A stretch of 64,000 bases of DNA, from assembly GCA_943333275.1 (NCBI GenBank), contig CALQSQ010000004.1:4909-68908 (forward strand), written 5' to 3'. This DNA is from Akkermansia muciniphila. GTDB lineage: Bacteria > Verrucomicrobiota > Verrucomicrobiia > Verrucomicrobiales > V1-33. Position 1 is the first letter of the stretch; the number at the start of each line of letters is the position of its first letter. The position numbers and the translations under genes were made by a program. The notes under the pieces were generated by a model, which saw only the letters and a list, made by a program, of their open reading frames with translations, was not told the origin of the DNA and ran no database searches. This document shows positions 3,315-25,027 of this stretch, in pieces.

Positions 3315-3962
3315 ATGGACCGACTTCCCTTCATCGTCTGGTTCGAACACTCCAGCGTCGCCGCAGCCGCCATTTCCGGCGTGCTCGCAGCGCGTGGGCG
3401 TCGCATCGATCTTTTTGGCGTGGCAGTCCTCGCCCTTGTAACCGCTTTCGGTGGAGGCACCGTGCGGGATCTTTGCCTCGGAGATACGCCCGTCTTTTGG
3501 ATCCGAAATTCCGACCACGTCATCACCGCCCTCGTCTTCGCTTTCCTGACATTTTTCACCGCCCGGTCACGGCAACTCCCCCTGCCTCCCTGGCTGCTGG
3601 AACTTGCCGATGCCATCGGGCTTTCTCTCTTCGCGATCATCGGAGCGGAAAAGGCGCTGGTGCAGTTTCAATCCACCCCGCTCGCCGCGGTCGCTTTGGG
3701 AACCGTCACCAGTGTCTCTGGAGGAATTTTGCGGGATGTGATTCTGAATGAAATCCCCCTCGTCTTCCGCCGTGAAATTAAACTCTACGCCGTGGCCGCC
3801 ATGGTCGGAGCCACGCTTTTCGTAATCCTGGAAAAATATGTCCCGTCCGTTTCCCATCCCTGGCCATTCCTCATCAGCGCCGGAACGATTCTGGCGCTGC
3901 GGCTCGCCGCCATCCGCTGGTCACTGGCCCTGCCGGAATTCGTGGATCGCCGACGGCAATGA
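3315..3962 (+). CDS. TRIC/UPF0126 family cation-channel membrane protein (YadS/YicG-like)
   Basis: Two internal repeats each carry the glycine motif (FGGGTVRDL and SGGILRDV) within a ~7-TM hydrophobic profile. Confidence 0.7.
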   Translation: MDRLPFIVWFEHSSVAAAAISGVLAARGRRIDLFGVAVLALVTAFGGGTVRDLCLGDTPVFWIRNSDHVITALVFAFLTFFTARSRQLPLPPWLLELADAIGLSLFAIIGAEKALVQFQSTPLAAVALGTVTSVSGGILRDVILNEIPLVFRREIKLYAVAAMVGATLFVILEKYVPSVSHPWPFLISAGTILALRLAAIRWSLALPEFVDRRRQ

Positions 3963-3977
3963 ACAAAGCCTCGCCGC

Positions 3978-4910
3978 TTATTTTCCCGACGGACCGATGA
4001 ACCTGGTGGCGACGACAACGTTGTCGAAGAACACGACGTTTACCGGGTTCTTCGTCCATAAGTCCGTGATGTAACTTTCCACGGTCAGCGCATTGGCCAT
4101 AAGCTTCTCCTGCTTCCGCCAGTTAATGCCCTTCCAGCGGCCCATTAGCGTCCCATCAATCCAATACGCCTGTTCACCATCCCGTTTGCCGGGCGTGTTG
4201 TGAACCAACATAAATTCGACACAAATCCACTTCGATTTGGTGATCAATGGACTGTCCTTTACTGCGAAGGATTTGCCCCAGGAATGGCCCTGGAATTTAC
4301 CGTCGAGAGAGGTTTCCATTTCGTTCCAATAACTGTAAAAATTCCACCGACCTGGCGCGGTATTTCGCCCCCAGTCTCCCCAGGGCTCAATGGCGGTGGA
4401 AAATCGTTCATCACCGACGGGCTTTAAACCGGCCCCACCGAATCCGTTCCACTTTTCGGCACCCTGCAGGCTCTTGTTGGCCCGTAAGGTTACGAAATGA
4501 TGCACGTAATCGCAATCCGGTGCGAACTCGGTGTAGAAGCGGATAAAAAGCGTCCCGGCAGAGGAAAACCATTTGGTGACACCCCCGCCCGTGTCTTTGC
4601 CAAGGTGAGCTTCAGCACGAAGGCAATGGTTTCCCAACTCAGGGGATTCTGGCGATGGAAAGGTGAAAACATTTTTCTTCTCCTCATCCTTCTCGTCCCA
4701 TGCCGCAAAATCCCCGGACTCAAATCCATCCGCAAAAATCACCCCCTCCTTTTTCTGCAATCCCACATCCGCCTTGAACTCCGCTGCGATGCCGGGACCG
4801 GATGGAAGCTCCTTCTGGAAGGCGAAATTTTCGACACCTTCCCCGCCAGACGCAGGCTGGAAGCAAAGCGCCCATGAGCAGAAGAGAATGGCAGGGGATT
4901 GGAACGTCAT
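3978..4910 (-). CDS. Secreted hypothetical protein, possibly a beta-jelly-roll (lectin or polysaccharide-lyase-like) fold
   Basis: Long ORF with a signal-like N-terminus from the internal Met (MTFQSPAILFCSWALCFQPASG). It is W/F/Y-rich beta-type sequence. I recognise no catalytic motif. Confidence 0.45.
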   Translation of the reverse strand: MTFQSPAILFCSWALCFQPASGGEGVENFAFQKELPSGPGIAAEFKADVGLQKKEGVIFADGFESGDFAAWDEKDEEKKNVFTFPSPESPELGNHCLRAEAHLGKDTGGGVTKWFSSAGTLFIRFYTEFAPDCDYVHHFVTLRANKSLQGAEKWNGFGGAGLKPVGDERFSTAIEPWGDWGRNTAPGRWNFYSYWNEMETSLDGKFQGHSWGKSFAVKDSPLITKSKWICVEFMLVHNTPGKRDGEQAYWIDGTLMGRWKGINWRKQEKLMANALTVESYITDLWTKNPVNVVFFDNVVVATRFIGPSGK

Positions 4911-4988: not shown

Positions 4989-6524
4989 CTATCTTGGGGT
5001 TGAAATCCTGTAAAATTCCCGCAATTGCCCGGCCACAAACGGATCGAAAAATTCAGTAGCAACATCCTCCGCCGTGACGATGCTGGCAACCTCCCAAGAT
5101 TCCGGGAGCAGGTTGGGACTGCGTTCAATGATGTAGGTTCGTCCCGGGAGACTGTCCCAGGTCAGATGAAAGCGGTCCGGACCGGCAACCGTCTCGACAA
5201 TCTGTATTTGCGGAGCAGGCGATGGGCAGATGTTTTGAATTTTGCGAACACGCCCCCCATCATTGCTGACAACCAGAACGCTACCGTCTGGCGTCACCGC
5301 CACAGACCGCGGTTGATTCTGACACAGTTGATTGGTTACCGGAATAGACAGGGGGAAGGTGCTGTTGTAAAAGTTGACATCCTTGGTCCCTTTTCCATTG
5401 ATAAAAATATGGATGAATCCCGCCGTGTCCACATAGAGCACCTGCCCACCCTTGTGGGTGCAAAGGAAATATCCGCCATTGGGTGTGAAGGAAATGCCGC
5501 GAACCTGAAATAAATACGCGGTGGTGGCCGGGGTTCCTTCGATGACTCCTCCTCCGGTCGCACCGTAAAGTCCTGCGACAATGGTTTTGGTCGAGGTTCC
5601 GGTTAGCGGATCAGTCGCTTCCGCATCAATACGGTAAACCACAGAGTGGGAATTTCCTCCTGGGGCATTCTCGGCGCGGTCACATACGTACAGCTTATGC
5701 GTGATGGGGTTTACATCGATATTGCCGGGATTGATCAGCTCAAGATTGCTGAGCGTCGGAGTCACTGGAAAAGCAGTGATCGCTTGAATCCCCCCGGTTG
5801 GGGTCCATTTTTTAACAACCCCACCCAGAGGAGGATGAGAGATGGAAACGCCGACGGGAATTGGGGCCGCGTAGTCAGGAACCTCATGAGTGTAATAAAT
5901 TAGATCTTCGTTGGCACTCACCCACAAACCGCGACCGGACGGAAGGTACCGCCGGGAAGCGTCGTCCCCCGGTTGGATTTCCCCATCCGGATCATTAACC
6001 ACCGTGGTCATCATCCCATCCAGGCCCACCCTGCGGATCCGATGGCTCCCTGCATCGTAAATGTAGACGACACCGTTGGGTAAGACAAAGAGACCGTTGC
6101 AGGCGACAAGGTTCAGCGCGATGGCGGGAGCCGGACCATCATCCACGAAACCAGGGGGCGGGGTGTAGGCAGGGGGAGGACCAGTGTAGGGGTAGGCATG
6201 CGTTCCGGCAAAAGTGTGAATGCGACCATCCGTGGTCACCTCCAGAATGGAGTGACTGGCCTTGTCGGCAATGTACACATTGCCCAGTGCATCCGCCATT
6301 GCCATGTGGGGATTGGAAAGGTCCACGTTTGTCGCCATTGAATATTCGTAGGATGGAATCCAGTCGCTGGCCTCAGGGACCGAGGAATTGGAGGCTGCCC
6401 CGTTTCCAGCAAAAGCGGTTGTGATGGGCGCAAAACAATTTGTGAGTTCCTGGTATTCGGTGAGCGCAAAGGCGTTATGCAGAAGCAGGAATGGAATCAC
6501 AGCAACCGTAGCGGAAGGTTTCAT
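4989..6524 (-). CDS. Secreted NHL-repeat beta-propeller protein with a C-terminal FYRI-ending module
   Basis: Signal peptide MKPSATVAVIPFLLLHNAFA. Repeated NHL-like blades are present (GNVYIADKASHSILEV, VVYIYDAGSHRIRRV, KLYVCDRAEN). The C-terminus is ...TWDSLPGRTYIIERSPNLLPESW...REFYRISTPR. Confidence 0.65.
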   Translation of the reverse strand: MKPSATVAVIPFLLLHNAFALTEYQELTNCFAPITTAFAGNGAASNSSVPEASDWIPSYEYSMATNVDLSNPHMAMADALGNVYIADKASHSILEVTTDGRIHTFAGTHAYPYTGPPPAYTPPPGFVDDGPAPAIALNLVACNGLFVLPNGVVYIYDAGSHRIRRVGLDGMMTTVVNDPDGEIQPGDDASRRYLPSGRGLWVSANEDLIYYTHEVPDYAAPIPVGVSISHPPLGGVVKKWTPTGGIQAITAFPVTPTLSNLELINPGNIDVNPITHKLYVCDRAENAPGGNSHSVVYRIDAEATDPLTGTSTKTIVAGLYGATGGGVIEGTPATTAYLFQVRGISFTPNGGYFLCTHKGGQVLYVDTAGFIHIFINGKGTKDVNFYNSTFPLSIPVTNQLCQNQPRSVAVTPDGSVLVVSNDGGRVRKIQNICPSPAPQIQIVETVAGPDRFHLTWDSLPGRTYIIERSPNLLPESWEVASIVTAEDVATEFFDPFVAGQLREFYRISTPR

Positions 6525-6726
6525 GGGGAGGGAGAGTTTACCGATTTAACCCTAAGGCTTCCTGCAAACCAGGTCCACCATTCAATCTATAATGACAGGA
6601 ATTTCACCTCCCCCGAAACCAAAATTGCTGGGAAGAATGTGCCGGAAAAATGACGGCTTAATCGAGGGCATCTGAACGGTAGATGGTTGACTCCGACCCT
6701 GAGGCTATCAATCCGGCCTCAATGCT

Positions 6727-8529
6727 TCATTCCGTCGTCTGATAGGTGAGCCACTCTCGCCAACTTCCATAACTCGTGATTTCCCTGGCTGTCTCGCTGA
6801 TCAGGCCTTCACAAACGAAACCACACACGTGCGATCCATCCGCGAGCTGCACACGGCCCAGGACCAGCGGCGCGGCGATGCCTTCGAGGAAGGATCCCAT
6901 GGTGGATTTGGGGATTTCCCAGACTTCGAGTTCGATGGCGGCTCCGCCTTCTCTGACGCGGACCATGCCAGGCCGGTCAGGAATGCGTCCGTTTGCGGGT
7001 AGCAGGTAGAGTCGATAGCAAGGCGCACTCTGGATTCGTTGCACAAAGCGGGCCTTGCGGTCGCTCAACTGCCAGTGCAACGCGAGTCCCTCCATGTGAG
7101 CCCCGCAGACGGCAATCTTCATCATGGGGACTGTGGATGGTGGCGATTCAGGCAGTGGCACGTCACTGCTCATTGCGGAGGATTTTCCAAGCGGAAGATT
7201 GGCCTCAGCGTGAAAGCGGGCCGCGCAATCGAGCACAAGTGCATCGCCATGAGGGGGCGCATAGAAAGTCACGCCCCAGGGCAGGCCATTGCACTGAAAT
7301 CCGGCGGGAACGGCACAGCCGCAGAGATCAAGCAGGTTCATGAAATTCGTATAACGACCAAGGTTGCTGTTGAGTTTGATCGGTTCGGCCTCCACTTCTG
7401 CCCTGGTATAAATAGTCCCGGCGGTTGGCATCAGCAGAGAATTGATGTTTTGCCACGTGGCTTCACTGGCGCGCCTGAGTTCCGCGAGTCGATATTGCGC
7501 CCGGAAAGCATCCACCGCCGTCCCCTTGAGACCGCCTTCAATGATTGTGCGAGTCACTGGCAAAAGGGCTTCTGGCTGTTCTGCGAGAAGTTTACTGACA
7601 ACTGCGGTGCGTTCCGCCACCCACGGCCCTTCGTAGAGCAAACGCGCTGCATCAAGAAAGGCGCTGATGTCCACTTCGATGATTTCCCAACCCATTCCGG
7701 CGATGGTTTGTCTGGCATGATCAAACAATCGTTTGGCATCATCGTTGCCAAAGAAATCCAGTTGATCGGACCTCGGAACACCAATCTTAGGCGGCCAGGA
7801 AAACTCCGCACTCAATCCTGCACTGCGTGCATAGGCATCCGCTTCATCAAACGCAGCCGCCACTTTCAAAACACTCGACGCATCCGCCGCCGTCAGCGCA
7901 AAAATGGAGACGCAATCGAGCGTCCGGCACGCAGGCACAACCCCGGTGCAACTCAACAAACCTCGCGTCGCCTTAAGCCCGATGAGATTGTTAAACGAAG
8001 CGGGAACGCGCCCCGATCCAGCAGTGTCCGTTCCTAATGAAAAACTGCACAGGCCTTTCGCCACCGCCACCGCTGATCCCGCGCTGCTGCCACCAGGAAT
8101 GTAATCTGGATTGAAAGCGTTTCCTGGCACCCCATACGGCGAACGCACGCCGACAAGTCCTGTGGCGAACTGATCAAGGTTGGTCTTGCCCATGGGAATG
8201 GCTCCGGCATCAATCAGCAGTTTAACCACGAAAGCATGCTGGGCTGGCTCATAACTCCATGCCGGGCAGGCGGCCGTGGTGGGAAATCCAGCGCAATCAA
8301 TGTTGTCCTTGATGGCAAAAGGAATGCCGTAGAGCGGCTTGGAATCAGGCGATTCTCCTTCGAGTGCTCGAAGCGATTCTCTCAACTGCTCTTCCGTGGG
8401 CCGACTGATCCAGATCGCCGGATCATCCGACGCGGCGCGCCTCCATGCATCGAGAACAATTTCCCTGGGGCTGCAGGATCCCTCCCGATAGGCCTTGAGC
8501 AGCGCGGAAATGGAAAGATCTGGAATCAT
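6727..8529 (-). CDS. Allophanate hydrolase (amidase-signature domain plus C-terminal allophanate hydrolase domain)
   Basis: 600 aa. The amidase signature [12 protein letters not shown] with the upstream KDNID motif is present. The start overlaps the carboxylase stop by 4 nt. Confidence 0.85.
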
Positions 8530-11500
8530 AGTTGCACGGAGATGAGAGTTTGGCCCGGAGTCACTGCCTGACCTTCCTTCACATGCAGCGCCGCCACGGT
8601 GCCCGAGGTCGTGCTCGGAACGTGGATCTCCATCTTCATGGCCTCAACGATGAGCAGCGTTTGTCCTTCCTCCACACGATCACCGACGGCGACCTGCAGT
8701 TTCCAAAGACTTCCAGTCACCGGACTGACAACCGCTTCATGGCCGTCCGGCAGCGTGATCTCTGTATCCGCCGTCATCGCACTGGAAGTCGATTCCGTGA
8801 CGTCCAGCCCCGCGATCCTCCACCGTTCACGCTCAGCCGCGAAGGCATCGCGCTGAAAGGAACGAAACGCAGCGATGCTTGGTGATTCGCTTTCAAGAAA
8901 TTCGAGATAGTCACTGAGTCTGAAACTGCTCTGTTCGATGCGCGGCGTGAAACGTCCCGCAGGGAAATCGCGCCTCAGCTCCATCAACTCGTCCGCACTG
9001 ACAAGATAGAACCGCACTTGATCAAAGAACCTCAGCAGCCACGGCTTGCCATCTTCGAAGACATCCGTGACCCGATCACGATTCCACATTTGAATGGTGC
9101 GTCCCACAAATTGGTAACCGCCCGGTCCCTCCATACCATAGATGCACATGTAGGCACCTCCGATGCCCACGGCATTCTCCGGCGTCCAGGTGCGGGCGGG
9201 ATTGTATTTGGTCGTGACCAGGCGATGCCGTGGATCAAGCGGTGTCGCGACCGGCGCGCCAAGGTAAACATCACCCAACCCAAGCACCAGATAGCTCGCA
9301 TCGAAAACAATGCGCTGCACATCGGCGATACTCTCCAGCCCATTGATGCGACGGATGAACTCAATATTGCTGGGGCACCAAGGAGCATCGGGCCGAACCG
9401 ATTGCATGTATTTGTCTATGGCCAGTTGCGTCTGAGGATCGTCCCATGAGAGCGGAAGATGCAAGATGCGGGATGGCACTTTCAAATGCTCCACATCATC
9501 CAGCGAGGAGATTAACTCTTCCACCAAACGTTCAACCTGCTCTAGTCGCAGCTGCTCGCCATCGATATGAATCTGCAACGAACGAATCCCCGGCGTGAGA
9601 TCCACGATGCCGGGATGATTCATCGACTGAAGTTTTAAATAGACGGCATGCACCCAGAAGCGCAGGGCGATATCGAGCACCAGAGGCCCAAACTCCACTA
9701 GCAGGTTGCGATCCCCCGCCGGACGATACACAACTTCGGGGCGTGATGCGCAAGCCGCGATGCGATGCCGCACTGCCTGCAAAGCAGCCAGTCCACCCGT
9801 TGTTAATTCCGGAGGTGTTCCACCCGCCATGGAATCTTCTACAAACGCATCGAGCGCCTCTGCTTGCTCCAGCGAAATTGCCACGAACTGGATGCGATCT
9901 CCTGGTTTCAGTTGCCCCACTTTCCACAAGTCAGCATGGACGACAACAGCCGGGCACACAAAGCCGCCCAGGCTCGGGCCATCCGGTCCCAGGATGATTG
10001 GCATGTCGCCGGTGAAATCAATGGAGCCGATCGCATAAGCGTTGTCATGAATGTTCGAGGGATGCAATCCTGCCTCACCACCGTCCGCACGCGCCCAGGT
10101 GGGTTTTGGTCCGATCAAACGCACACCGGTGCGCGCCGAGTTGTAATGAACCTCCCATTCCGTTGCAAAAAACATTTCGATGTCTTCAGGAGTGAAAAAA
10201 TCAGGCGCACCGTGTGGACCGTAGAGGACGCGAATCGTGTCCACTTTGTTTCCGGCAGAGAAGGGATGGAGCTTGGCCAAAGAGAAAGAACCGATGGCCG
10301 CAGTTGCAGGGTTGATGTGAATAACATCGCCGACGCGCAACGCCCGCCCAGCGTGGCCGCCGAAATTCCCCAGCGTAAACGTCGAGCAGCTTCCCAGATA
10401 AAGCGGCACATCCAATCCACCCTGAACTGCCAGATAAGCGCGGCACCCATGTCCGGTGGTGCGCCCAAGCTTAAGCGTCTGTCCGGCAAGCACGGAGATC
10501 GGCTTCCAGAAGGCAACGGAAGCACCATCCAACTCCGCACTCATTTCTGCGCCAGTCAGACAAATGGTAGTGTCCGCATTAAATCGGAGCGTCGGCCCCG
10601 CCAGAGTCATTTCAAGACCTGCGACCCCTTCCTCGTTTCCGATCAGTCGATTTGCGATGCGCAGGGCCAGCGGATCCATCGCCCCAGAGGGAGGCACGCC
10701 GATTTCCCAATAGCCAAGCCGCCCCGGCGTATCCTGCACTGTCGTTTGTACTCCTGGAGCGAGCACATCGATGGTTGAAGGTCGATACTGAAATGAAGTG
10801 GCCAGGGCGCGCGTGGTGATGCGTCCTTCGGTGAAAAGTGGATCGCGAATCACCTGCCGCAGGTAGGCCAGGTTCGTCTCGATGCCACTGACGTTCGAAT
10901 GGTCCAGCGCATGCTGCATCTTGGAAATGGCGTCGGCGCGGTCTGCACCGTGCACTATAATCTTCACCAGCAGCGGATCGTAATACGGCGTGACTTCCGT
11001 TCCTGTGCTGATCCATCCATCACAGCGGGCTTCCCTGCAAAGTTGCACATCCGTGAGGCGCCCGCAGCTCGGTTGGAAGTCCTTGTTAGGATCCTCCGCA
11101 TAAACACGGACTTGGATGGCGCTTCCTTTTGGCGTAAAAGCAAAGCTTTCCAACCCAACATCCTCGCCTGCGGCGGTCCGAACCATCCATTCGACGAGGT
11201 CCAGTCCGGTAACGCATTCCGTGACGGTGTGTTCTACCTGCAGCCGGGTGTTCACCTCCAGGAAATAAAACTCGTTGGTGTCGGCATCATACACAAACTC
11301 CACGGTGCCGGCCGAACGGTAGTTTACGGATTTCCCCAACCGCACGGCGCAATCCCAAAGTGCATAGCGTGTCTCATCGGATAAGTTCGGCGCTGGTGTC
11401 TCCTCGATGATTTTCTGATTGCGACGCTGCGTCGAACAGTCGCGTTCCCCCAGGGAAACGAGCGAGCCTTTTCCATCGCCGAAAATTTGCACCTCAACGT

Positions 11501-12119
11501 GCCGTGCATTGACGACCAGCTTCTCAACAAACACCCCGCCATCCCCGAAACTTGATTTCCCCTGACGCACCACGGATTCAAACGCGGCCCGCAGTGATGC
11601 AACGTCATCACACCGCCGCATTCCGATTCCGCCGCCGCCCGCCGTGCTCTTGAGCATGACGGGAAAACCAATGCGCGACGCCTCACTCACCGCCTCGTCC
11701 GCATCGCGCAGCAGGGCCGAGCCTGGAACCAATGGAACCTTGCAGGCCAGGGCTCGTTCACGCGCGGTGTGCTTCAATCCAAAGGCGCGCATTTGATCAG
11801 GCGTTGGCCCCATGAAAGCCATGCCGGCCTGTTCGCAGGCTTCGGCGAAACCCGCATTTTCACTGAGCAATCCATATCCGGGATGAACCGCCTGCGCACC
11901 GCATTGAGATGCAATTTCCAACAATCGCTTCTGGTTGATGTAGCTCTCGGCCACCGGCGCGGGGCCCAGCAGATAGGACTCATCGGCCATGGAGACATGG
12001 GGCGCGTCGCGATCCGCTTCGGAATATACAGCAACGGAGCCAACGCCCATTTTTTTGAGAGTTCGGATGATGCGGCAGGCGATTTCGCCGCGATTGGCCA
12101 CGAGGACTTTGGTAAACAT
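8526..12119 (-). CDS. Urea carboxylase / guanidine carboxylase (biotin carboxylase + carboxyltransferase AHS1/AHS2-like domains + biotinyl domain)
   Basis: 1197 aa. The N-terminus [20 protein letters not shown] is a biotin carboxylase start, and the C-terminal biotinylation motif EAMKME is present. The length and order are typical of bacterial urea-carboxylase-type enzymes. Confidence 0.9.
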
Positions 12120-12122
12120 AGG

Positions 12123-12755
12123 TCAGTCCCAGATGAGCACGCGCACCGGGGTTGGGTTGTAGGCATTGCAGGGATTGTTTAACTGCGGGCAGTTGGAAAT
12201 GAGGCACATCACATCCATTTCGGCGCGCATTTCGACATACCGTCCCGGGCCGCTGACGCCATCGGCAAAGCTGAGCTGGCCATCCAGTGTCACGGGCACA
12301 TTCATGAAAAAATTGATATTGCAGGTGATGTCGCGCTTGCCCATGCCGTGGCTCCAGCATTGCACGCCGCGGATAAAACTGTCGCGGCAGGCATGCATCG
12401 GCTCTTTTTCGACTGCGTAACGCATAACGTTGCTTTCGCGTGAGCAAGCGCCGCCAAGCGTGTCGTGCCGGCCGCAGGTGTCGGCCACGATAGTGAGCAG
12501 CGGATTACCCCGTGTGGACATGAGCTTCGTTCCCGTCGTCAAATAAAGCGCAGCCTGATGACGGATGGTATCGCTCGCGCTGTAGCGTTCGAGCGGATCA
12601 TGGGCGTTATAAAACAGAGTGTCGGCGGCCTGGTTTCCCTCCAGATCCTCGATGCGCAGGGTCTGCCCTTTTTTAACAAGATGCAGCCAGTGATCGCCCG
12701 CAGGCACGATCTCGTCGTGAACTGCTTCAGAAGGATTGAGGTGGGATGCGATCAT
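12123..12755 (-). CDS. DUF1989 protein (urea-carboxylase-associated protein 2 / carboxyguanidine deiminase subunit-like)
   Basis: It is a paralogue of the upstream gene and sits immediately 5' of the carboxylase (3-nt gap). I moved the start to the internal Met (MIASHLNP), which gives an ATGA overlap with the upstream stop. Confidence 0.75.
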
Positions 12756-13468
12756 CGGGCGAGGAGGTAAAATTCTTCGGTGCTGCAATGCGCCCTGGCG
12801 TTCTCGGGCCGCACGATGAAGCTTGGGTCATCGACAGCGGGAGGATCACTCCTGAGGACCTCGAGCCGCACCCGACGCGGGTGATACTGTGGATCGGGAT
12901 CCAGCGGATGCTGGCAGGTGTTCAGCACCACAAGCGTGTCCATTTCGAATCGCAGATCGACTGAGTCCCCCGGCTTTGAGTTTCCACTGACAAAATCCAG
13001 CCGCCCTTCCTCGTCCGCCACAATCTTGCTGAACCAATTAAGGTTCGGAACCAGATCACGCTCGCCCAGTCCCCATTTCGAAAGCTCGATGAGGAAGCAG
13101 TCCCGGGCATTGCGATGAAAATCATTGCGGGCGGTTTGAAAATTTTTCTCCCCATATTTTTTAAGGACCAGGGAGGCATCGCTAGCCCCACACACGGAGT
13201 CGTGCCAGCCAACGTCATCCCGGGTGATCGAGGCGAACAATCTCCCCATGTCCGAATGAAGGCAATAGGGGGCGCGCAGGTAGAAAATGTGCTGGCCCTT
13301 GAGCGTATCGGGCATGTTGTAGCGTTCATGACGCTCGGTGGCGTTATAGAGCAGCATGCCGACATTGGCGCCGCCCTCGAGATCGGTAAGTCGCAGGGTC
13401 TTATGCCTGCCAATGACGCGCGACCACATGCCTGCGCCGCTGAGTTCGATGTTATAAAAGGGAGTCAT
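12752..13468 (-). CDS. DUF1989 protein (urea-carboxylase-associated protein 1 / carboxyguanidine deiminase subunit-like)
   Basis: 238 aa. Its pattern is related to the downstream paralogue ([20 protein letters not shown] versus [20 protein letters not shown]). It overlaps the regulator stop by 4 nt. Confidence 0.75.
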
Positions 13469-13929
13469 GGTTCATCCGCCTGGGTTTGAATGGGTGGCAT
13501 GAGGGTGCGCGTCAGGTTAAGCCGTCCAGCGAGCACCCCCTTGCAGGTGAGGAGTTTGTTGGCAATTTGGCGCAACCGCTTTGCCGGACCCTGAACAAGA
13601 ATCACTTCCATGGTGTTACTGTTTTCCAGCAGGACATGCAGGGAACTGATCACCTCCCGAATGCTCTCATGCTGGATGTCGGCAATTTCCTGCTTCAACC
13701 CGGGCCGCTTGTGATCGTAGAAAAGCGTGATTGTGCCGGCCATCATGCGGTTGCCTCGAAGGCTGTAATAGTCGGCAATGTGCTGGGTGAGGACTTCCGC
13801 CACCGCCTGCGATCGATTGTGGAATCCTCGCTCGATCATCAACTCCTGAAACTGACGAAACACGCCCTCGGGCAACGAGAGCGTAACCCGGTGGGCAGTG
13901 GTGGAGTCAGCGGAAGGAAGGTCGGCCAT
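13465..13929 (-). CDS. NikR-like ribbon-helix-helix (CopG family) transcriptional regulator with a C-terminal ACT-like domain
   Basis: It aligns by eye along the whole of E. coli NikR ([10 protein letters not shown].., [14 protein letters not shown] versus RGYNNRSEAIRDIL; [30 protein letters not shown] versus [30 protein letters not shown]). The ATG at 13929 is preferred over the GTG at 13953. Confidence 0.7.
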
Positions 13930-13967
13930 TTTGTGATAAGGAATCTTGAGCACGATTCAGACCATTC

Positions 13968-13996
13968 GTATGAAGAAAAATCAAATTGGTATGAAG
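13968..13996. promoter_or_regulatory. Direct repeat GTATGAAG-N13-GTATGAAG (21-bp period) in the AT-rich gap upstream of the RHH regulator; candidate operator
   Basis: Exact 8-mers lie at 13968-13975 and 13989-13996. GTATGA is the half-site of the E. coli NikR operator (GTATGA-N16-TCATAC). This is the only sizeable intergenic gap inside the 15-gene cluster. Confidence 0.35.
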
Positions 13997-14006
13997 TATT
14001 TAGGGT

Positions 14007-14822
14007 TTAAATCACATTCTGCAATCGTCCCATCATCCAACGGTTCACCTCGCGAAGGTCAGCCACCCGCTTCCGTGTAAATAGCTCCTCCTGCAGGTAT
14101 CCATCCGGGCCGAACTCCGGGGTGAACGTGGGCAGAGGATTCCCATGCAAAACTTGTCTTTCCGCAATTCGCCGCCACCAGCGTTCATGGGCTACGAGGG
14201 CGGCGGCATATTCCGGCACACGGGGATCGGGAACCTGCGGTCCCTGCTCGTAGCCCACGCGTGCATGCACATGAAGGGCACGATTCGCGATTAAATCCAA
14301 CAATTCCCCCTCCTCATCCATCACCAGCCTTTCGGTCACCGCGCACCAGTGGCTGAAATCACAGGTTAATCTCAGCTCAGGAATTCCCTTCAACAAATCG
14401 CGCGTCACCCAGGGATGGAACGTAGGCCGGCTCCGGTGCGTCTCGAACGCAATCGGGATGCCAAATTCCCTCTCGAGTGCGAGCGCTTGCGCATAAAAAC
14501 TAAGGGCTTCGGCCATCGGCCAGGCGTCGCTCCCGGCAAGGGCATTGATCAAAATCGGTTTGAACGGAAGGGACTTTTCAATTTGATCACGCAAATCCTC
14601 AAAATGAACCTTAGTGGAGAGGTGCGCGCGGGGCACGTATCCGCCCCCGGTCGCGATTTCTGCAATCCATGGCACGGATCGCTGACGCAAACTTTCCACG
14701 TTGGCATCATCCACCGGCACCGGTCCCTCGATTCCACAGGCCTCCCATTCGGCAGCAAGCGCCAATGCGCCGGTGATATTCACCTCGTTTCCCCAGCAGG
14801 ACACAAAACATCGCGGTTTCAT
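14007..14822 (-). CDS. Xylose-isomerase-like TIM-barrel protein (sugar phosphate isomerase/epimerase family)
   Basis: 271 aa with family-typical strand ends (AFETH, HVHARVG, CDFSHW). It overlaps the upstream gene by 4 nt. Confidence 0.6.
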   Translation of the reverse strand: MKPRCFVSCWGNEVNITGALALAAEWEACGIEGPVPVDDANVESLRQRSVPWIAEIATGGGYVPRAHLSTKVHFEDLRDQIEKSLPFKPILINALAGSDAWPMAEALSFYAQALALEREFGIPIAFETHRSRPTFHPWVTRDLLKGIPELRLTCDFSHWCAVTERLVMDEEGELLDLIANRALHVHARVGYEQGPQVPDPRVPEYAAALVAHERWWRRIAERQVLHGNPLPTFTPEFGPDGYLQEELFTRKRVADLREVNRWMMGRLQNVI

Positions 14823-15679
14823 GGCAAATCGAAGTTCACCTCCCTTCTGGCCTCCGGATGGCCCCTAACGTATTCGGCAATCTCCTGCCCACGTGCGAAC
14901 CAAACGTAACCTCGTTCCCTCGCCTTTGTCAGCAACTCCTCCAGCAACCGCACCCGTGAGGGGCGCCCGCTCAGCCAGGGATGCAGCGTAAGCACGAAAC
15001 AGCAGCCAAAATCACGCATGGCCTCGAATTCGCGCCACCAGAGATCGAACACGTTGCTGCAATTCTGCGGAATGGAACCCCAGGCTGGCTCGGCATTGAA
15101 GGCGAACTGCTCCCAGTCCTCCAGCATCCATTGGCCGGGAATTTCGATGAGACCATTTGAGTGCGTGTAGGGCACGTCATCGCCCATCATGCTGGCATTA
15201 TAAAGATAGCTGAACTCCTTCAACAATCCGGGTGTTCCAGGATTGATCTCAAACCATGGAGCGCGAAACCCAACGGGGCGCCTGCCCGTGATACGCTCAA
15301 GGATGCCGGTACTTTTTTCCAAAACCGCGCGTTCCTCCTGTGGAGATAAATGGGCCAGCTTTTCGTGCATGTGCCCATGTGCGCCGACCTCATGCCCGCG
15401 GGTGACGATGGCTTCCATCATCCGTGGATGACGTTCGGCGATGTAACTCGGCACGAAAAACGTGGCCGGGAGTTGCAAATGATCGAGCAAGCCCAGTAAT
15501 CGCGGCACGCCAACGTTTGGTCCATATTCGCACTGCGACATCGTGGTGAGGCGGGAAGCGAGCGTTGGGTCCTCGGAGAGCGCGGTGGTTTCGCCATCGA
15601 CATCAAAGCACAGCATGAAGGCACACTTGGCACCGTCGGGCCAGATAAAGCGTGGAGGAGGGGAGTAGAGTTCAGTCAT
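14819..15679 (-). CDS. Polysaccharide deacetylase (CE4/NodB) family hydrolase, PuuE-allantoinase-like size
   Basis: NodB-type motifs are present: FDVDGET, PATFFVPSYIAERHP, GHEVGAHGHMHE. I moved the start to the internal Met (MTELYSPPP), which gives an 8-nt overlap with the SDR stop. The longer ORF (to 15820) would overlap the SDR by about 150 nt. Confidence 0.7.
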   Translation of the reverse strand: MTELYSPPPRFIWPDGAKCAFMLCFDVDGETTALSEDPTLASRLTTMSQCEYGPNVGVPRLLGLLDHLQLPATFFVPSYIAERHPRMMEAIVTRGHEVGAHGHMHEKLAHLSPQEERAVLEKSTGILERITGRRPVGFRAPWFEINPGTPGLLKEFSYLYNASMMGDDVPYTHSNGLIEIPGQWMLEDWEQFAFNAEPAWGSIPQNCSNVFDLWWREFEAMRDFGCCFVLTLHPWLSGRPSRVRLLEELLTKARERGYVWFARGQEIAEYVRGHPEARREVNFDLP

Positions 15680-16442
15680 GCCAGTGCCCTCCGACAATGT
15701 TGTTCGGTGAAGTGAGCGGATACTCGTTCCAGCCGGCGGTGATTCCTCCGTCCACTGGGATGTTGGCTCCGGTGATGTAGCTCGCGTCATCGCTGGCAAG
15801 GAAGTGAAACGCCGCAGCAATCTCGTCGGGCCACGCGAGGCGGCCCAACGGTGTCGCCTTGCTCACGAATGAAATCTCTGGGTTGTTGGGAATATCGGTG
15901 ACAGCAGGCGTGAGCACGGTGCCGGGGCAGACGCAATTCACGGTGATGCCTTTCGCGGCCAGTTCGATGGCACCGAGTTTGGTGAGGTGAATGACGGCCG
16001 CTTTGGAAGTGGAGTAAGCGGTGCCACTGGGCGAGCCGATCATGCCTACAAAGGAGCCCGTGTTGATGATGCGACCGCCGCTTTCGAGCAGTTGCCCGCC
16101 GTGCTTGATACCGAAGGCGACGCTGTGAACATTCACTTCAAAGGTGCGCTGCAGAAGCTGCGGTGTGAGTTCATTGAAGCTGACACCGAGCGGTTGGATG
16201 CCCGCGTTGTTGATGAGGATGTCCACGCGACCAAACTCTGACTTCGCTTGCTCCAACATGCCGCGCACTTCGTCCTCGGCGGAAACATCGGCTTGATGGA
16301 ACACAGCGCCTTCGATCTTGGCAATGTTGCGATCCACCAGCAACACGCACGCTCCAGCCTTGACGAAGCGCTCGACAACGGCGAGGCCGATGCCAGAGGC
16401 TCCTCCAGTTACGACGGCGACTTTGTTGGTCAGGTCAAACAT
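15672..16442 (-). CDS. Short-chain dehydrogenase/reductase (SDR) family oxidoreductase
   Basis: Cofactor motif TGGASGIGLA, NNAG, and catalytic YSTSK (YxxxK). Confidence 0.85.
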   Translation of the reverse strand: MFDLTNKVAVVTGGASGIGLAVVERFVKAGACVLLVDRNIAKIEGAVFHQADVSAEDEVRGMLEQAKSEFGRVDILINNAGIQPLGVSFNELTPQLLQRTFEVNVHSVAFGIKHGGQLLESGGRIINTGSFVGMIGSPSGTAYSTSKAAVIHLTKLGAIELAAKGITVNCVCPGTVLTPAVTDIPNNPEISFVSKATPLGRLAWPDEIAAAFHFLASDDASYITGANIPVDGGITAGWNEYPLTSPNNIVGGHWHD

Positions 16443-16837
16443 GGTGGTGGTCCGTTGTGCGTGAATTTTGGAAGCTCCGGATCAAGCACGAGCCAGGGAA
16501 GATGATCGGCCATCCAGTTGTAGTCGTCAGGCTGCAGTGATGCCGCGTCATCCATGGTGCCTAGAGTCAGCTCCAAGAGATCAGGATAGGCGCTGTCGTA
16601 GAAGCTAATGGGTGAGCCGCAGGCAGCACAAAACGCGCGTTCGCGCCCTTCGTAGTGATGCACGCGCAGTTCGCCGGTGATGATGCGGATGTCCTCTTTG
16701 GCAAAGAAGACCCAGCCCTGGAACGGCGCGCCACTGGCACGGCGACAGTCTTCGCAGTGGCAGAGGGACGTGTTTAGTGGTGCGCCGTGCGCTTCGTAGC
16801 GCACAGCTCCACAGAGGCAGTGGCCAGTCCACATCAT
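16430..16837 (-). CDS. GFA / CENP-V family zinc protein (glutathione-dependent formaldehyde-activating enzyme family)
   Basis: MMWTGHCLCGAVRYEA...CHCEDCRRASGAPF...FCAACGSPI shows the GFA cysteine pattern. The start at the internal ATG forms an ATGA overlap with the Rieske gene stop. Confidence 0.7.
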   Translation of the reverse strand: MMWTGHCLCGAVRYEAHGAPLNTSLCHCEDCRRASGAPFQGWVFFAKEDIRIITGELRVHHYEGRERAFCAACGSPISFYDSAYPDLLELTLGTMDDAASLQPDDYNWMADHLPWLVLDPELPKFTHNGPPPCLT

Positions 16838-18096
16838 GGCCTTTGAGAGGGCGCGGGTGGAATGTCGGTCGCGGGCATAACGCCGCGGATCCGGGCCGCA
16901 AGGTATCGTTGGATCAGCCAAACGGACATCTCCAAGTAACTCAAGCGGCCACGCTGATAACCGCTGGCATAGAACCCGCGCTGCACGGCGGTGCACATTT
17001 CCATGTCTTCCATGTGAAACTTGCGCAGAATCTCAATCTGCTCGGCACACATCGCTGGCCAGTTCAGGTGCTCGGTGGTGGATGCAGGCACGAGCGTGGT
17101 GGTCAGAAGCTTCACGCGATCCGCAGCGGCGGGGATCATGCGGTAGAAGATGAGGCGATCCGGGTTCGCCGAGATCAGCATGAGCGGATGCACGAGGAAG
17201 ATGTGCCACTCGTTTCTCAACTCCGCTGGCAGATCAATGGGCGGCATCCCATGCACGGACTCACCGCGGGCTTCCGCAGCCAGCATGTCATCGAGCATCG
17301 CGGGCTTCACGGGCAGATGCGCTCGGATGTAGGCGGGGCGTTCTTGTTCGTTCCAAGTGAGCTTGGCTGGCATCATCGGCTGCAGCGTCGTCGAGTGCGC
17401 GCCGATGTGGTGATACGACTCCATGAAGTTCTCCGCGAGCACCTTCCAGTTGAAAGGACAGTCCCACTCCATTTGGATGACCATCTTCATCTCACTGATG
17501 TTCCAGGGCGCGAGTGCCTCGGCCAAACCACTGAGTCGCTCATGCAGCGGCGGTGCGGCACCATCGAGATTGACGAAGACAAAGCCATTCCACACCTCGC
17601 AAGCGAAGGACGTCAGGCCCCACTCCGCACGATCAAAGCATTCCGTCTTCTCCATCTCCGGCGCCCCTTTGAGCCGACCGTCCAAATCAAACGTCCACGC
17701 GTGATACGGGCACATGAAAACGCGCGAATGGCCACAGTCCGGCGGCCCGTGGCCGGCATAGCCAAAACCCTCGGGCATGATGTCCATCGCCCGATGCGGA
17801 CACACTCGCGAGAGCACGCGGATGTTCTCTTTGCCTCGCACCACGATGAGCGGATCGCCGAAGACGTCGATGTTCAAGTAGTCGCCGACGTTCGGGATCT
17901 GCGACACATGCGCGAGGGGCAGCCAGTCGTTGCGGAAAACGTGATCGACTTCCCAATCAAAGAACGCCTCGCTCGTGTAGGCTTGTGCTGGCAAGGTCGT
18001 GGCCTGCGCGAGCGGGAGTTGCGCGATGCGTTGGATCTCGGCTTGGATCTGTTCGACGCTCCACTGCGGAAGCGCGTTTCTGGATGACGTGCTCAT
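16834..18096 (-). CDS. Rieske [2Fe-2S] non-haem-iron oxygenase, alpha subunit only (GbcA/Stc2/NdmA-like monooxygenase class)
   Basis: Rieske motif CPHRAMD...CPYHAWTF. Mononuclear-iron motif NFMESYHHIGAHS. There is no beta subunit or reductase gene nearby. Confidence 0.85.
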   Translation of the reverse strand: MSTSSRNALPQWSVEQIQAEIQRIAQLPLAQATTLPAQAYTSEAFFDWEVDHVFRNDWLPLAHVSQIPNVGDYLNIDVFGDPLIVVRGKENIRVLSRVCPHRAMDIMPEGFGYAGHGPPDCGHSRVFMCPYHAWTFDLDGRLKGAPEMEKTECFDRAEWGLTSFACEVWNGFVFVNLDGAAPPLHERLSGLAEALAPWNISEMKMVIQMEWDCPFNWKVLAENFMESYHHIGAHSTTLQPMMPAKLTWNEQERPAYIRAHLPVKPAMLDDMLAAEARGESVHGMPPIDLPAELRNEWHIFLVHPLMLISANPDRLIFYRMIPAAADRVKLLTTTLVPASTTEHLNWPAMCAEQIEILRKFHMEDMEMCTAVQRGFYASGYQRGRLSYLEMSVWLIQRYLAARIRGVMPATDIPPAPSQRP

Positions 18097-18099
18097 GGT

Positions 18100-19461
18100 T
18101 CAAAACAACCGTGCATACTGATCGATCTCCCACTGGCTGACGCGCTGGTGGTATTGGAGCCACTCCTCGCTCTTGTAGGCAACGAACTCGTTGCGGAGTT
18201 CGGTGCCGAGCGTGGCCTCCACAAATGGATCCTCAGCAAATGCGCGGACGGCTTCGTCCAGGGTGCGGGGGAGTTCGCTGATGCCGCGCGCCTTGAATTC
18301 CTCCGCGCTGAGGGCGTAAAGATTATCCTCGTTGGAATTCCCGGGATCCAATTTTTCACGGATGCCCTCAAGCCCCGCGGCCAGCACCAGGGTAGCGGCG
18401 AGGTAGGGATTGCAGGCGGCATCGGCATTGCGGGACTCCATGCGTCCACCCGCCATCGGCACGCGCACGGAGTTTGTGCGGTTGTTGCGTCCGTAACTGT
18501 TGAACACCGGCGCCCACGTATAGTTTGCCATGAGTCCCCGGCGCACCAGCCGCTTGTAACTGTTCACCGTGGGAGCGAAGGCAGCGCACAAGGCGCGGCC
18601 GTGTTTCAGGACTCCTCCCATGAAATGATAGGCCATCTCACTGATACCCAATCCGCGCGGATCGTCTGCATGCGCACGGGCAAACCTGTTTTTCCCCGTC
18701 TCCAGATCATACAGCGACATGTTGAAATGCGCGCCACTGCCAGTCTTGTCGGCGAAGGGCTTGGGCATAAACGTCGCCAGCAATCCCTCCTCTGCGGCGT
18801 AGTGCTTGGCCATGTAGCGGAAGAAAATGTAGCGGTCGCACATGGTGAGGGCGTCGGCGTATTTGAAATCGAACTCGAACTGGGATGATGCGTCCTCATG
18901 GTCGAAGGAATACAGATCCCATCCAAGGTCATTGATGCAGCTGGCGACCTTGTCGACCCATGTGAACCGATCCAGGAAGCGCTTTACGTCATAGCATGAC
19001 TTCACAAGCGTCTCATCGGGATTGGGGAACTCAAGCTTCCCGTCGGTGGTCAGTTTCAGGACAAACAGCTCGCATTCGATTCCAAGGTTCATGCCGAGGC
19101 CCATGTCGGCAGCCTGCTTCAATACCTTTTTCAGGGCGCAGCGGGTGTTCACTTCGTAGGGCTCACCCTTGAATGTATTGTCTGCCGGCATCCAGGCGAT
19201 TTCCTTTTGCCAGGGAAGTTGGATGATGTTGTCAACGTCAGGAAGCGAGGCGATCTCATCATCGTTGGGACTCTGGCCCAGGCCGTCCAGCGCATATCCG
19301 GTGTAAAGTTCGGAGCCTCTGGCGAAATCCAGGAAATGATCAATCGGCACAAATTTACCCTTTGGCACACCATGGATGTCAACATAGGCGCCAATGCAAT
19401 ATTTCACGCCCTTGGCCTTGAGGGAGTCGCGGATGGAGGTCAGTTCGGAATCGGTCTTCAT
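18100..19461 (-). CDS. Glutamine synthetase family protein (GlnT / gamma-glutamyl-amine ligase-like)
   Basis: 453 aa. The GS catalytic-domain pattern is present ([19 protein letters not shown]...R.E.R). Confidence 0.8.
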
Positions 19462-19484
19462 TGATTATCTGTGGGGATGGTGGT

Positions 19485-20273
19485 TTAATACAAGACGTTG
19501 GAGTCGGACCAGTGATGCGGATCGAGGGGCGGGATTTCGCAACGGGCGCGGTTGATGATCTCGGCCAGCGCCTCGCCCATTTTGACAAACATTTTCGCGC
19601 CGCGATCAGCCGAGCCCAGCGATGGCTTGCCGGTGATTCCGTTCAGGCTTGTTTGGGAGACGGGGTAACTGAATACGAGACCTTCCGTCCGGTCGGGATC
19701 ATCCTCCACCCAATCCATGCGCACGGTGTCCGGCGCCAAGTGCAGCATGAGATCAGTCTCCGCACAATTTGCATGCAGGTCTGCGGCGTCATTGATGAAA
19801 TAATTCCAAATCTCAGTAGTGAGCTGGTAGGTGTGTCTGAGGCCGATTTGAATTCCCCCCAGAAATTCCGTCCGAATGCGATCCACTGCCACCCGAAGGG
19901 ATGCGTCGTTTCCGAAATGGGCGTTGACGATGAGCAGTCGCCTCCACCCTGTGCGCATGCTCCACAGGGCGATCTCCCGGATCATGGCGATGAGGGTTTC
20001 GTGATTGATCGAAAATGTCCCCGGCCACTTGGAAGTGTGCCCGACGGAAACCCCGTAGGAAAGTGGGGGCAGCATGGGCACCATGGTTCTCGCGGAGGCG
20101 TAGGAGCAGACAGCGGAGGCGATGGCGGTATCCGTGTTGATTGGTAGGTGGGGGCCGTGCTGCTCGGTCGCACCGATGGGGAGGATCAGCATGTCCTGAC
20201 CTCCAGCCTGGAGTTCCGCGATGGCTCTCCAGGAAAGGTTCTCCAGCAAAACGGGGGATTCATTCGACATCAT
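19485..20273 (-). CDS. Creatininase-family amidohydrolase (creatinine amidohydrolase / formamide hydrolase family)
   Basis: Motif LPIGATEQHGPHLPINTD plus the downstream VNAHFGN. I moved the start to an internal Met (MMSNESP), which overlaps the ATPase stop by 11-14 nt. Confidence 0.75.
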   Translation of the reverse strand: MMSNESPVLLENLSWRAIAELQAGGQDMLILPIGATEQHGPHLPINTDTAIASAVCSYASARTMVPMLPPLSYGVSVGHTSKWPGTFSINHETLIAMIREIALWSMRTGWRRLLIVNAHFGNDASLRVAVDRIRTEFLGGIQIGLRHTYQLTTEIWNYFINDAADLHANCAETDLMLHLAPDTVRMDWVEDDPDRTEGLVFSYPVSQTSLNGITGKPSLGSADRGAKMFVKMGEALAEIINRARCEIPPLDPHHWSDSNVLY

Positions 20274-21150
20274 CGCCTGCCTTGGTGAGTTTGACGACGG
20301 GCAACTTGTCCTCTTCAACATCGATGGGTGGATGGATGAGTTCCTCAAGGCGGAGCTTGAGTGCGAGATATTCAGGAGAAACAAACTGTGCGGTGGAGCG
20401 CGGGCGGGGAATGGGATTCTCAATCACCTCCACGATCCGTCCCGGATTGGTTCCCATAACCATGATGCGATCCGAAAGATACGCGGCCTCCTCAAGGTCA
20501 TGCGTGATGAAGAGAACCGTGATGTCCACTTTCTTCCAAATTTGTAGCAGGTAGCTTTGCATCTGGGCGCGGGTCTGGGCATCGAGTGCGCCAAAGGGTT
20601 CGTCCATGATGAGGATGCGCGGCTCATTGGCGAGAGCCCGCGCAATGGCGACGCGTTGCTTCATTCCGCCCGACAATTCATGGGGATAGGACTCCTCAAA
20701 TTTCGAAAGTCCCACCATGTCGAGCCATTGCCGGGCTTCCGATTCGGCGGTGAATTTGTCCTTGCCGCGCATTTCAATGCCAAACATGACGTTGCGTTTC
20801 ACCGTCAGCCAGGGAAACAGCGTATAGCCCTGGAAGACCATTCCGCGATCCGGGCCGGGTTCACCAATCTCCCTCCCATCAAGCAGCGCCACGCCTCCGC
20901 TGCATTCGTCCAGACCGGCGATGATGCGGATGAAGGTGGATTTACCGCATCCGGAGGGACCGATGACGGTGATGAATTCGCGGCGGCGGATGTCGATCGA
21001 AACGCCGTCGAAAACAGTGCGCGTGCTGCCGTTGACGCCATAGGTCTTCTTCAGGCCGCGCACGCTCAGAATCACGGGACGCTGCCGGATGCGTTCAAAC
21101 CGGGCTGCGACCTCCGGGGAAAGATTGCGATAATCGAGGGCCGCACTCAT
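20260..21150 (-). CDS. ABC transporter ATP-binding protein (NitT/TauT nitrate/sulfonate/bicarbonate family)
   Basis: Walker A GPSGCGKST, signature LSGGMKQR, Walker B ILIMDEPF. Confidence 0.9.
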   Translation of the reverse strand: MSAALDYRNLSPEVAARFERIRQRPVILSVRGLKKTYGVNGSTRTVFDGVSIDIRRREFITVIGPSGCGKSTFIRIIAGLDECSGGVALLDGREIGEPGPDRGMVFQGYTLFPWLTVKRNVMFGIEMRGKDKFTAESEARQWLDMVGLSKFEESYPHELSGGMKQRVAIARALANEPRILIMDEPFGALDAQTRAQMQSYLLQIWKKVDITVLFITHDLEEAAYLSDRIMVMGTNPGRIVEVIENPIPRPRSTAQFVSPEYLALKLRLEELIHPPIDVEEDKLPVVKLTKAGDDVE

Positions 21151-22181: not shown

Positions 22182-22200
22182 ATGGGTGGTGGGTGAAAAC

Positions 22201-23172: not shown

Positions 23173-23225
23173 GGGAGATGTGGAATTATGGTTGCGGATT
23201 AATTAGGTGTAACCCCTCCCTCTCC

Positions 23226-23241
23226 AGCATCCCTTGTGCCA
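23226..23241 (-). promoter_or_regulatory. Candidate sigma-54 (-24/-12) promoter for the 15-gene cluster
   Basis: The minus strand reads TGGCACAAGGGATGCT against the consensus TGGCAC-N5-TTGCW. GG/GC spacing is correct and there is one mismatch. It lies about 54 nt upstream of the SBP start codon. Confidence 0.4.
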
Positions 23242-23335
23242 AGTGGATGCCGCATTCACCATCATCATAAATAAAGCAGGGCTTCGTCATACCCTTTTCA
23301 GGGCTGTTAACCCGCCACCGCTTGGGCCTCAAAAA

Positions 23336-24793: not shown

Positions 24794-25027
24794 GGAGTGG
24801 ACGTGAAAGGAGGTTGCACCTTATACCAACGTTGCGTTACGCGGGTGGTTGGGAGTGTCAAAGGGAATTGTTTCCCACCTCGTCAACTTGGCGTTCATCA
24901 AGTCGAATTTGTTAGAAATGGATTTTTCTTACAAAATCATTTGTCTTTTCTGTAAAGAGAGAAATATTGAACCAAGCGAGGTGCCTTTTGAACGAAAATC
25001 CCCCGCGAAACGCAACCCACCACTGCC

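Follow-up and report, generated by a model that had tools for sequence, protein, structure and literature searches.

In Pseudomonas syringae pv. tomato DC3000, a guanidine carboxylase, the carboxyguanidine deiminase CgdAB and an allophanate hydrolase make up a guanidine degradation pathway (Schneider et al., 2020, cited in PMC11410670 and PMC12508155). Guanidine operons under riboswitch control are described from Raoultella terrigena, Klebsiella michiganensis and Vreelandella boliviensis (Sinn et al., 2021, 2025; PMC12186494, PMC12508155). These share the gene order importer, DUF1989 pair, carboxylase and hydrolase, with a guanidine-I riboswitch at the start and a guanidine-II riboswitch before the carboxylase. 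Here we analyze a module of the same composition on a 64,000-nucleotide stretch of DNA (the window) from a Verrucomicrobiota genome deposited as Akkermansia muciniphila (GenBank assembly GCA_943333275.1, contig CALQSQ010000004.1, positions 4,909 to 68,908 of the forward strand), whose carboxylase would routinely be annotated as a urea carboxylase. Judged from sequence, the genes between 6727 and 13468 of the window very probably encode the known guanidine carboxylase pathway, leading from guanidine to ammonia, as part of an operon that is probably protein-controlled and in which we found no guanidine riboswitch.

The window has in common with the P. syringae pathway a TIGR02712 carboxylase with aspartate at the positions of residues 1330 and 1584 of the Kluyveromyces lactis urea amidolyase, two DUF1989 proteins, a TIGR02713 hydrolase and an ATP-binding cassette (ABC) importer nearby. 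It differs in that it lacks a guanidine riboswitch, its substrate-binding protein (SBP) is a remote relative of the TIGR03427 type, its module closes a 15-gene operon and follows a NikR-like gene, and it belongs to the phylum Verrucomicrobiota. The gene order matches that of the Raoultella, Klebsiella and Vreelandella operons, but in the window the DUF1989 and carboxylase genes are separated by 3 nt and there is no riboswitch. Extra genes are embedded in the operon, as in V. boliviensis, where they convert methylated guanidine to guanidine; however, the extra enzymes of the window, a Rieske oxygenase and a GFA-family protein among others, are unrelated to MgdH and MgdL of V. boliviensis. The pathway itself is already known, and what is new is this member from the Verrucomicrobiaceae.

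Gene coupling and signature residues

The module is the terminal part of an uninterrupted run of 15 minus-strand genes, which extends from an SBP gene (to 23172) at its head to the allophanate hydrolase gene (from 6727) at its end. Its four genes lie where the initial annotation had placed them:

12752-13468, minus strand: DUF1989/UAAP1 gene, 238 aa; PF09347; TIGR03425 at 302.7 bits (cut-off 206); probable second subunit of the carboxyguanidine deiminase
12123-12755, minus strand: DUF1989/UAAP2 gene; PF09347; TIGR03424 at 337.5 bits (cut-off 285); probable subunit of the carboxyguanidine deiminase
8526-12119, minus strand: biotin-dependent carboxylase gene, probable guanidine carboxylase (Gca), 1197 aa; TIGR02712 at 1842 bits (cut-off 1304)
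6727-8529, minus strand: allophanate hydrolase gene, 600 aa; TIGR02713 at 750.7 bits (cut-off 511); PF01425 and PF21986 (AH_C)

Read from the sequence, the last five genes of the run, from the NikR-like regulator gene to the hydrolase gene, follow one another with 4-nt overlaps or, in one case, a 3-nt gap. The stop codon of the NikR-like gene and the start of UAAP1 overlap at 13465-13468, an arrangement of translational coupling, and the UAAP1 stop codon TGA (12754-12752) forms the sequence ATGA with an overlapping ATG at 12755. This ATG is the likely start of UAAP2, which gives a protein of 210 aa rather than the 221 aa of a TTG frame (the frame is open to 12788). The UAAP2 stop lies 3 nt from the carboxylase ATG at 12119, and the carboxylase stop overlaps the hydrolase ATG at 8526-8529. 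Together with the family matches, these overlaps confirm the earlier description of two coupled, paralogous DUF1989 genes upstream of a 1197-aa carboxylase that is followed by an allophanate hydrolase.

The two DUF1989 proteins are paralogues, because each also matches the model of the other (189 and 133 bits), and they form the adjacent pair of TIGR03425 and TIGR03424 type beside a carboxylase that characterizes CgdAB. They are the only DUF1989 genes in the genome, which likewise holds a single carboxylase of this kind. The hydrolase has the amidase-signature N-domain (GGSSAGS) and the AH_C domain of an allophanate hydrolase (AH), above the model cut-off. With its order DUF1989, DUF1989, urea carboxylase (UC), AH, the window does not show the urea-type layout, which is an AH-UC pair or fusion without DUF1989 partners.

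We infer the substrate preference, the DUF1989 heteromer and the role of the regulator in the following scheme. The 1197-aa biotin enzyme would use ATP and bicarbonate to carboxylate guanidine, and the resulting carboxyguanidine would be deiminated to allophanate and ammonia by a CgdAB-type heteromer of the two DUF1989 proteins. The allophanate hydrolase would then release two more ammonia and CO2. The genes would be expressed as the last part of a long operon on one strand, with an ABC importer at its head and with control probably by proteins (the NikR-like regulator and a sigma-54-like promoter) in place of guanidine riboswitches.

The case for guanidine begins with the carboxylase itself. 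Its Pfam domains are BC, CT_A_B, CT_C_D and biotinyl, and TIGR02712 is matched over model positions 1-1201, so that it has the full-length arrangement of biotin carboxylase, carboxyltransferase (CT) and biotin carboxyl carrier protein found in the guanidine carboxylase subgroup of this family. The same architecture is seen in the K. lactis urea amidolyase (5i8i, 3va7), to which residues 2-1191 align end to end at 1193 bits, although the yeast enzyme is fused to an allophanate hydrolase. Guanidine carboxylases are recognized by an aspartate at K. lactis position 1584 and an aspartate in place of asparagine at position 1330 (Palatinszky et al., 2024, PMC11410670, after Schneider et al., 2020), and a review gives the same Asp/Asn rule (PMC12186494). 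The corresponding codons, and those of two lysines, are as follows:

10017-10019, minus strand: Asp701, at K. lactis Asn1330, the guanidine/urea discriminator; phmmer alignment to 5i8i/3va7, codon checked
9270-9272, minus strand: Asp950, at K. lactis Asp1584, the conserved substrate-site aspartate; alignment, codon checked
9207-9209, minus strand: Lys971, at K. lactis Lys1605, the proposed general base of carboxyl transfer; position counted from the alignment, codon checked
8634-8636, minus strand: Lys1162 of the biotin-attachment motif EAMKM; codon checked

The window carboxylase reads IDFTGD where K. lactis (5i8i) reads INFTGD, which places Asp701 (HMM position 701 in the profile hidden Markov model) at Asn1330. 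Asp950 is kept in a GLGDV motif (HMM position 956), and Lys971 and the biotinyl Lys1162 are intact; the role proposed for Lys1605 is that given in PMC5770610. The asparagine that marks urea-specific carboxylases and amidolyases is not present at this position of the window carboxylase. Since Asp701 and Asp950 are the two residues named in PMC11410670, the enzyme carries the guanidine signature. The alignment of the CT domain with a urea-preferring enzyme, which had been proposed as a check on the substrate, thus favors guanidine.

The signature extends beyond these two residues. Two sets of carboxylases were compared: 18 proteobacterial enzymes encoded next to DUF1989 genes in genomes that hold guanidine riboswitches, and 12 enzymes that have asparagine at position 701 (Asn-type); the guanidine set consists of riboswitch-linked homologues, which stand in for the characterized enzymes of P. 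syringae and O. sagaranensis. This comparison yields 20 class-discriminating positions in the CT domain, and the window carries the guanidine-class residue at 19 of them. The 13 Verrucomicrobiota sequences all agree at 15 of the 20, among them positions 693, 701, 711, 957 and 959, which lie near the two catalytic loops.

These residues bear directly on the main alternative, in which a true urea carboxylase and its allophanate hydrolase dispose of urea supplied by hydrolases encoded upstream and the DUF1989 proteins are accessory. That alternative draws on the NCBIfam names of the families (urea carboxylase, urea amidolyase associated proteins) and on the closest solved structure, which is the K. 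lactis urea carboxylase, but it has to contend with aspartate rather than asparagine at 701 and with the guanidine-class residues over the rest of the CT domain.

Related loci, trees and riboswitches

A scan of genome contigs gave 80 related loci whose carboxylases are 55-82% identical to the window enzyme, the nearest being from metagenome-assembled genomes (MAGs) of Verrucomicrobiaceae/Prosthecobacter, which assigns the window to this family. A DUF1989 gene adjoins the carboxylase in all 77 of the 80 loci whose upstream flank is present. Asp701 is found in 79 of the 80 carboxylases, or in 80 of 81 aligned sequences when the window is counted.

Asn-type enzymes were sought with the pattern G-x-[IV]-N-F-T-G-D in 401 Pseudomonadota genomes, and the regions around the 42 matches were fetched. 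Matches of the form G-H-[IV]-N-F-T-G-D in small genomes (32 of the 42) were left out, judged by their motif alone, as probable representatives of a different protein, and one further match, L127, is not a carboxylase. Nine full bacterial Asn-type carboxylases, 53-55% identical to the window enzyme, have Asn701, Asp950 and Lys971, and in all nine loci the gene order is hydrolase-carboxylase (AH-UC). There are no DUF1989 genes in their fetched flanks, which span roughly 5-7 kb to either side, and no riboswitch in the eight of these loci that were searched. The reasoning that a DUF1989 pair marks the guanidine type therefore held in this sample, with the 77 loci on one side and the nine on the other.

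According to the initial annotation, yeast-type urea amidolyase needs no DUF1989 partners in its pathway. A DUF1989 pair is present, but elsewhere, in seven of the nine genomes from which the Asn-type carboxylases come. In Marinobacter sp. ATCH36, on one 1.68-Mb contig, the pair adjoins an Asp-type carboxylase (L055) that lies about 318 kb from the Asn-type AH-UC locus (L130), which indicates that the two carboxylase classes coexist and keep different partners. L055 and L130 also make a natural pair for comparing the two specificities within one genome.

The division between the classes recurs on a larger scale. When 1.84 billion cluster representatives were searched, Asp701 was found in nearly all of those with at least 50% CT-domain identity; more distant representatives, including those of fungal length (1830-1930 aa), have asparagine or serine at this position. 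CT-domain trees, which are quick IQ-TREE searches with midpoint rooting only, place the window inside a clade of Asp-type, DUF1989-adjacent enzymes, with Shimodaira-Hasegawa-like approximate likelihood-ratio support of 95-99. The nine bacterial AH-UC enzymes cluster with the fungal-length urea amidolyase representatives (support 97), in a clade apart from that of the window.

Control by a guanidine riboswitch is common among guanidine carboxylases without being a defining trait, and we found none at the locus itself. Rfam models at the gathering score had no match of any kind in the whole window, and at E<=10 over 6000-26000 they returned nothing relevant, the sole match being a chance miRNA inside the carboxylase gene. 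These covariance-model searches agree with the initial annotation, in which no such element had been recognized. There is no match to guanidine-I or guanidine-II in the window's own genome, no guanidine riboswitch in 19 other Verrucomicrobiota carboxylase loci, and no guanidine-I in 151 evenly sampled Verrucomicrobiota genomes (79 genera).

The carboxylase is present in 17 of these 151 genomes, the window's own included. All 16 of the others are Asp-type and have DUF1989 genes and an importer of the window type, which extends the predicted guanidine carboxylase pathway into the Verrucomicrobiota. In nine of these 16 loci a NikR-like gene lies immediately ahead of the DUF1989 genes, and in three more it is divergent from the importer, so that 12 have one. 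In the sampled Verrucomicrobiota the pathway would run without any known guanidine riboswitch, which points to a protein regulator.

RNA sensors do appear in proteobacterial versions of the cluster. In Sinimarinibacterium (L021) and a gammaproteobacterial MAG (L017), both with the window-type importer, guanidine-I precedes the DUF1989 genes and guanidine-II stands directly before the carboxylase. Four other gammaproteobacterial loci (L026, L031, L057, L074) have the order importer, NikR-like gene, DUF1989, DUF1989, carboxylase and hydrolase, again with guanidine-II directly before the carboxylase, and a further homologous locus (L036) also has a guanidine riboswitch. In Marinobacter, Alcanivorax and their relatives, genome-level guanidine-I matches fall within the contig ranges of the carboxylase loci. 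Because the proteobacterial versions bear these sensors, clusters of the window type are tied to guanidine.

Several observations nevertheless weigh against assigning the module to guanidine. With no guanidine-sensing element at the locus, there is no direct link between guanidine and expression here. The creatininase-family and CE4/PuuE-like hydrolases (CE4, carbohydrate esterase family 4) encoded upstream belong to families that include members of ureide and creatinine pathways ending in urea. Characterized guanidine carboxylases still accept urea (PMC12186494), so the module could process urea as well. Finally, the carboxylase of one Gammaproteobacteria MAG (L070, JAADJE010000073.1, 10001-13591) has Asn701 and yet lies inside the Asp-type clade; this locus has a DUF1989 pair and an importer of the classic kind, and there is a guanidine-I riboswitch in its genome. 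The rule for residue 701 is therefore not absolute, and clade and context need to be considered along with it.

The upstream hydrolases and the residual urea activity fit the urea alternative introduced above. Against it, in addition to the CT-domain residues, stand the position of the window enzyme outside the clade of bacterial AH-UC and fungal-length enzymes, the lack of DUF1989 genes in Asn-type loci, and the guanidine riboswitches in homologous loci. Since the genome encodes a urease (ureC, 942 bits), a second route for urea is not needed. On balance, we regard a dedicated urea pathway as highly improbable. The proposal that the substrate is guanidine rather than urea is supported by four independent tests: the signature residues, the CT-domain positions, the trees and the riboswitch-bearing relatives. 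By every sequence criterion applied, the "urea carboxylase", the two DUF1989 proteins and the allophanate hydrolase are most likely members of the guanidine pathway. This corrects the routine annotation and makes guanidine, not urea, the expected end product of the upstream part of the 15-gene cluster.

Some sequences in the sample stand apart. Representatives P0021, P0058, P0067, P0072 and P0100, which lie inside or next to the Asp-type clade, have valine, histidine, methionine or serine at 701, and one has Glu950; they are possible further substrate classes. On a contig labelled Acidobacteria bacterium SZAS-6 (L086), the carboxylase is 82% identical to that of the window and the DUF1989 neighbors only 57% and 67%, which could mean a mis-binned contig or a recombinant locus.

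The NikR-like regulator and candidate promoter elements

The gene that precedes the DUF1989 pair in the window occupies the spot where proteobacterial loci have a riboswitch. It encodes a ribbon-helix-helix (RHH) regulator of the NikR family, and candidate regulatory elements lie upstream of it and of the first gene of the operon:

13465-13953, minus strand: NikR-family RHH regulator gene; NF003381 at 114 bits; PF08753; the ATG at 13929 may be the start
13968-13996, upstream of the NikR-like gene: direct repeat TTCATAC (coding strand) with 21-bp spacing, candidate operator
23226-23241, minus strand, upstream of the SBP gene: sigma-54-like element TGGCAC-N5-ATGCT; consensus match only

The protein aligns with Pyrococcus horikoshii NikR (2bj1) over the RHH and C-terminal domains at 99.6 bits. 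Its HVL and NTME, in place of HVH and NCLE, exchange two of the four nickel ligands (His to Leu and Cys to Thr), and the complete high-affinity site of NikR, made of three histidines and one cysteine, is not present. The ligand cysteine is also absent from all 20 carboxylase-linked NikR-like homologues examined. With these ligands missing, nickel sensing appears unlikely. The protein is the only one with a NikR_C domain in the genome, and the urease of the same genome is nickel-dependent. A literature search that combined NikR with guanidine or urea carboxylase returned, among its 12 best matches, no paper mentioning NikR.

As with the NikR repressors of P. horikoshii (2bj1), Escherichia coli (1q5v) and Helicobacter pylori (2ca9), half-sites of the GTATGA/TCATAC type are found upstream of the regulator gene, but the two copies in the window form a direct, not an inverted, repeat, and the nickel ligands differ as described. 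The TTCATAC repeat is kept in the window and in four close relatives (L013, L014, L016, L023) while the flanking intergenic bases diverge. In 610 kb of NikR-type loci there are eight pairs of TCATAC/GTATGA, of which this single repeat, in the window and the same four relatives, accounts for five; the 530 kb of other loci contain none.

The initial annotation had proposed that regulation is protein-based, through an RHH regulator and a sigma-54-like promoter. The regulator, now assigned to the NikR family, the conserved repeat and the TGGCAC-N5-ATGCT element are all seen, and protein-based regulation of the operon is plausible on these grounds.

The sigma-54-like element in front of the SBP gene is preceded, at a distance of about 45 nt, by a single GTATGA half-site (23285-23295, minus strand). 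In a Chthoniobacterales MAG (L019), an Rfam match to the 5' ureB sRNA model at 3713-4011 indicates urease genes a few kb from a NikR-type carboxylase module.

Importer and upstream enzymes

Upstream of the regulator gene, the run consists of an importer (20260-23172) and a set of further enzymes:

22201-23172, minus strand: ABC substrate-binding protein gene, at the cluster head
21147-22181, minus strand: ABC permease gene of the importer
20260-21150, minus strand: ABC ATPase gene of the importer
19485-20423, minus strand: creatininase-family protein gene
18100-19461, minus strand: type III glutamine-synthetase-like ligase gene
16834-18096, minus strand: Rieske oxygenase gene
16430-16996, minus strand: GFA-family protein gene
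15672-16442, minus strand: short-chain dehydrogenase/reductase (SDR) gene
14819-15820, minus strand: CE4/PuuE-like hydrolase gene
14007-14822, minus strand: gene of a 271-aa protein with no Pfam or NCBIfam match; xylose-isomerase-like TIM barrels in the ESM atlas, score 0.97

The SBP reaches 134 bits with TIGR03427, compared with a cut-off of 334 bits. Homologues of the importer (SBP 43-57%, permease 45-67% and ATPase 54-65% identical) are found beside the module in L017, in L021 and in the 16 sampled Verrucomicrobiota loci. The Rieske, GFA, SDR, CE4 and TIM-barrel genes are mainly confined to the closest Verrucomicrobiaceae relatives (L013, L023), with a partial set in L018 and L022. Importer, regulator and module are widespread without these extra enzymes, which argues that the basic function of the module is independent of them. 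If guanidine is the end product of the upstream part, this guides the identification of the imported compound.

The divergent importer and the extra enzymes are what suggest a second alternative, that a specialized variant of the module directly carboxylates some substituted form of guanidine, for instance methylguanidine, or a related amidine. The low SBP score indicates an unusual importer, and the Rieske oxygenase, GFA-family protein, SDR, CE4 hydrolase and TIM-barrel protein suggest a more complex feed compound; moreover, in V. boliviensis the guanidine-II riboswitch fails to discriminate methylguanidine (PMC12508155). However, the discriminating positions of the CT domain are the same as in riboswitch-linked enzymes, and the extra enzymes are restricted to close relatives while the module and importer occur widely without them. 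The Rieske and GFA pair would also fit a putative demethylation to free guanidine ahead of carboxylation. We consider direct carboxylation of a substituted compound to be improbable, and free guanidine remains the more probable substrate.

Assuming guanidine as that substrate, we can extend the model, tentatively, in two respects. The NikR-family protein without a nickel site may be a factor responsive to guanidine or a guanidine derivative that replaces the guanidine-I riboswitch in all Verrucomicrobiota and some Gammaproteobacteria, and the Verrucomicrobiaceae operon may be a funnel in which methylated or cyclic guanidino compounds are converted to guanidine. We hold this combined proposal as a possibility that is rather more doubtful than not.

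Several of the upstream genes recur in other contexts. The creatininase-family and type III glutamine-synthetase-like genes (18100-20423, minus strand, in the window) travel together between importer and module, and the pair is also found in L020, L024, L027, L032, L049, L021, L133, L134, L136, L137 and L139, of which L021 has a riboswitch-controlled module. In L021 a divergent operon carries creatininase-like, glutamine-synthetase-like and NikR-like genes together with a homologue of the 271-aa protein. Homologues of this TIM-barrel protein (42-49% identical) stand beside an importer gene in L026, L031, L049, L057 and L021.

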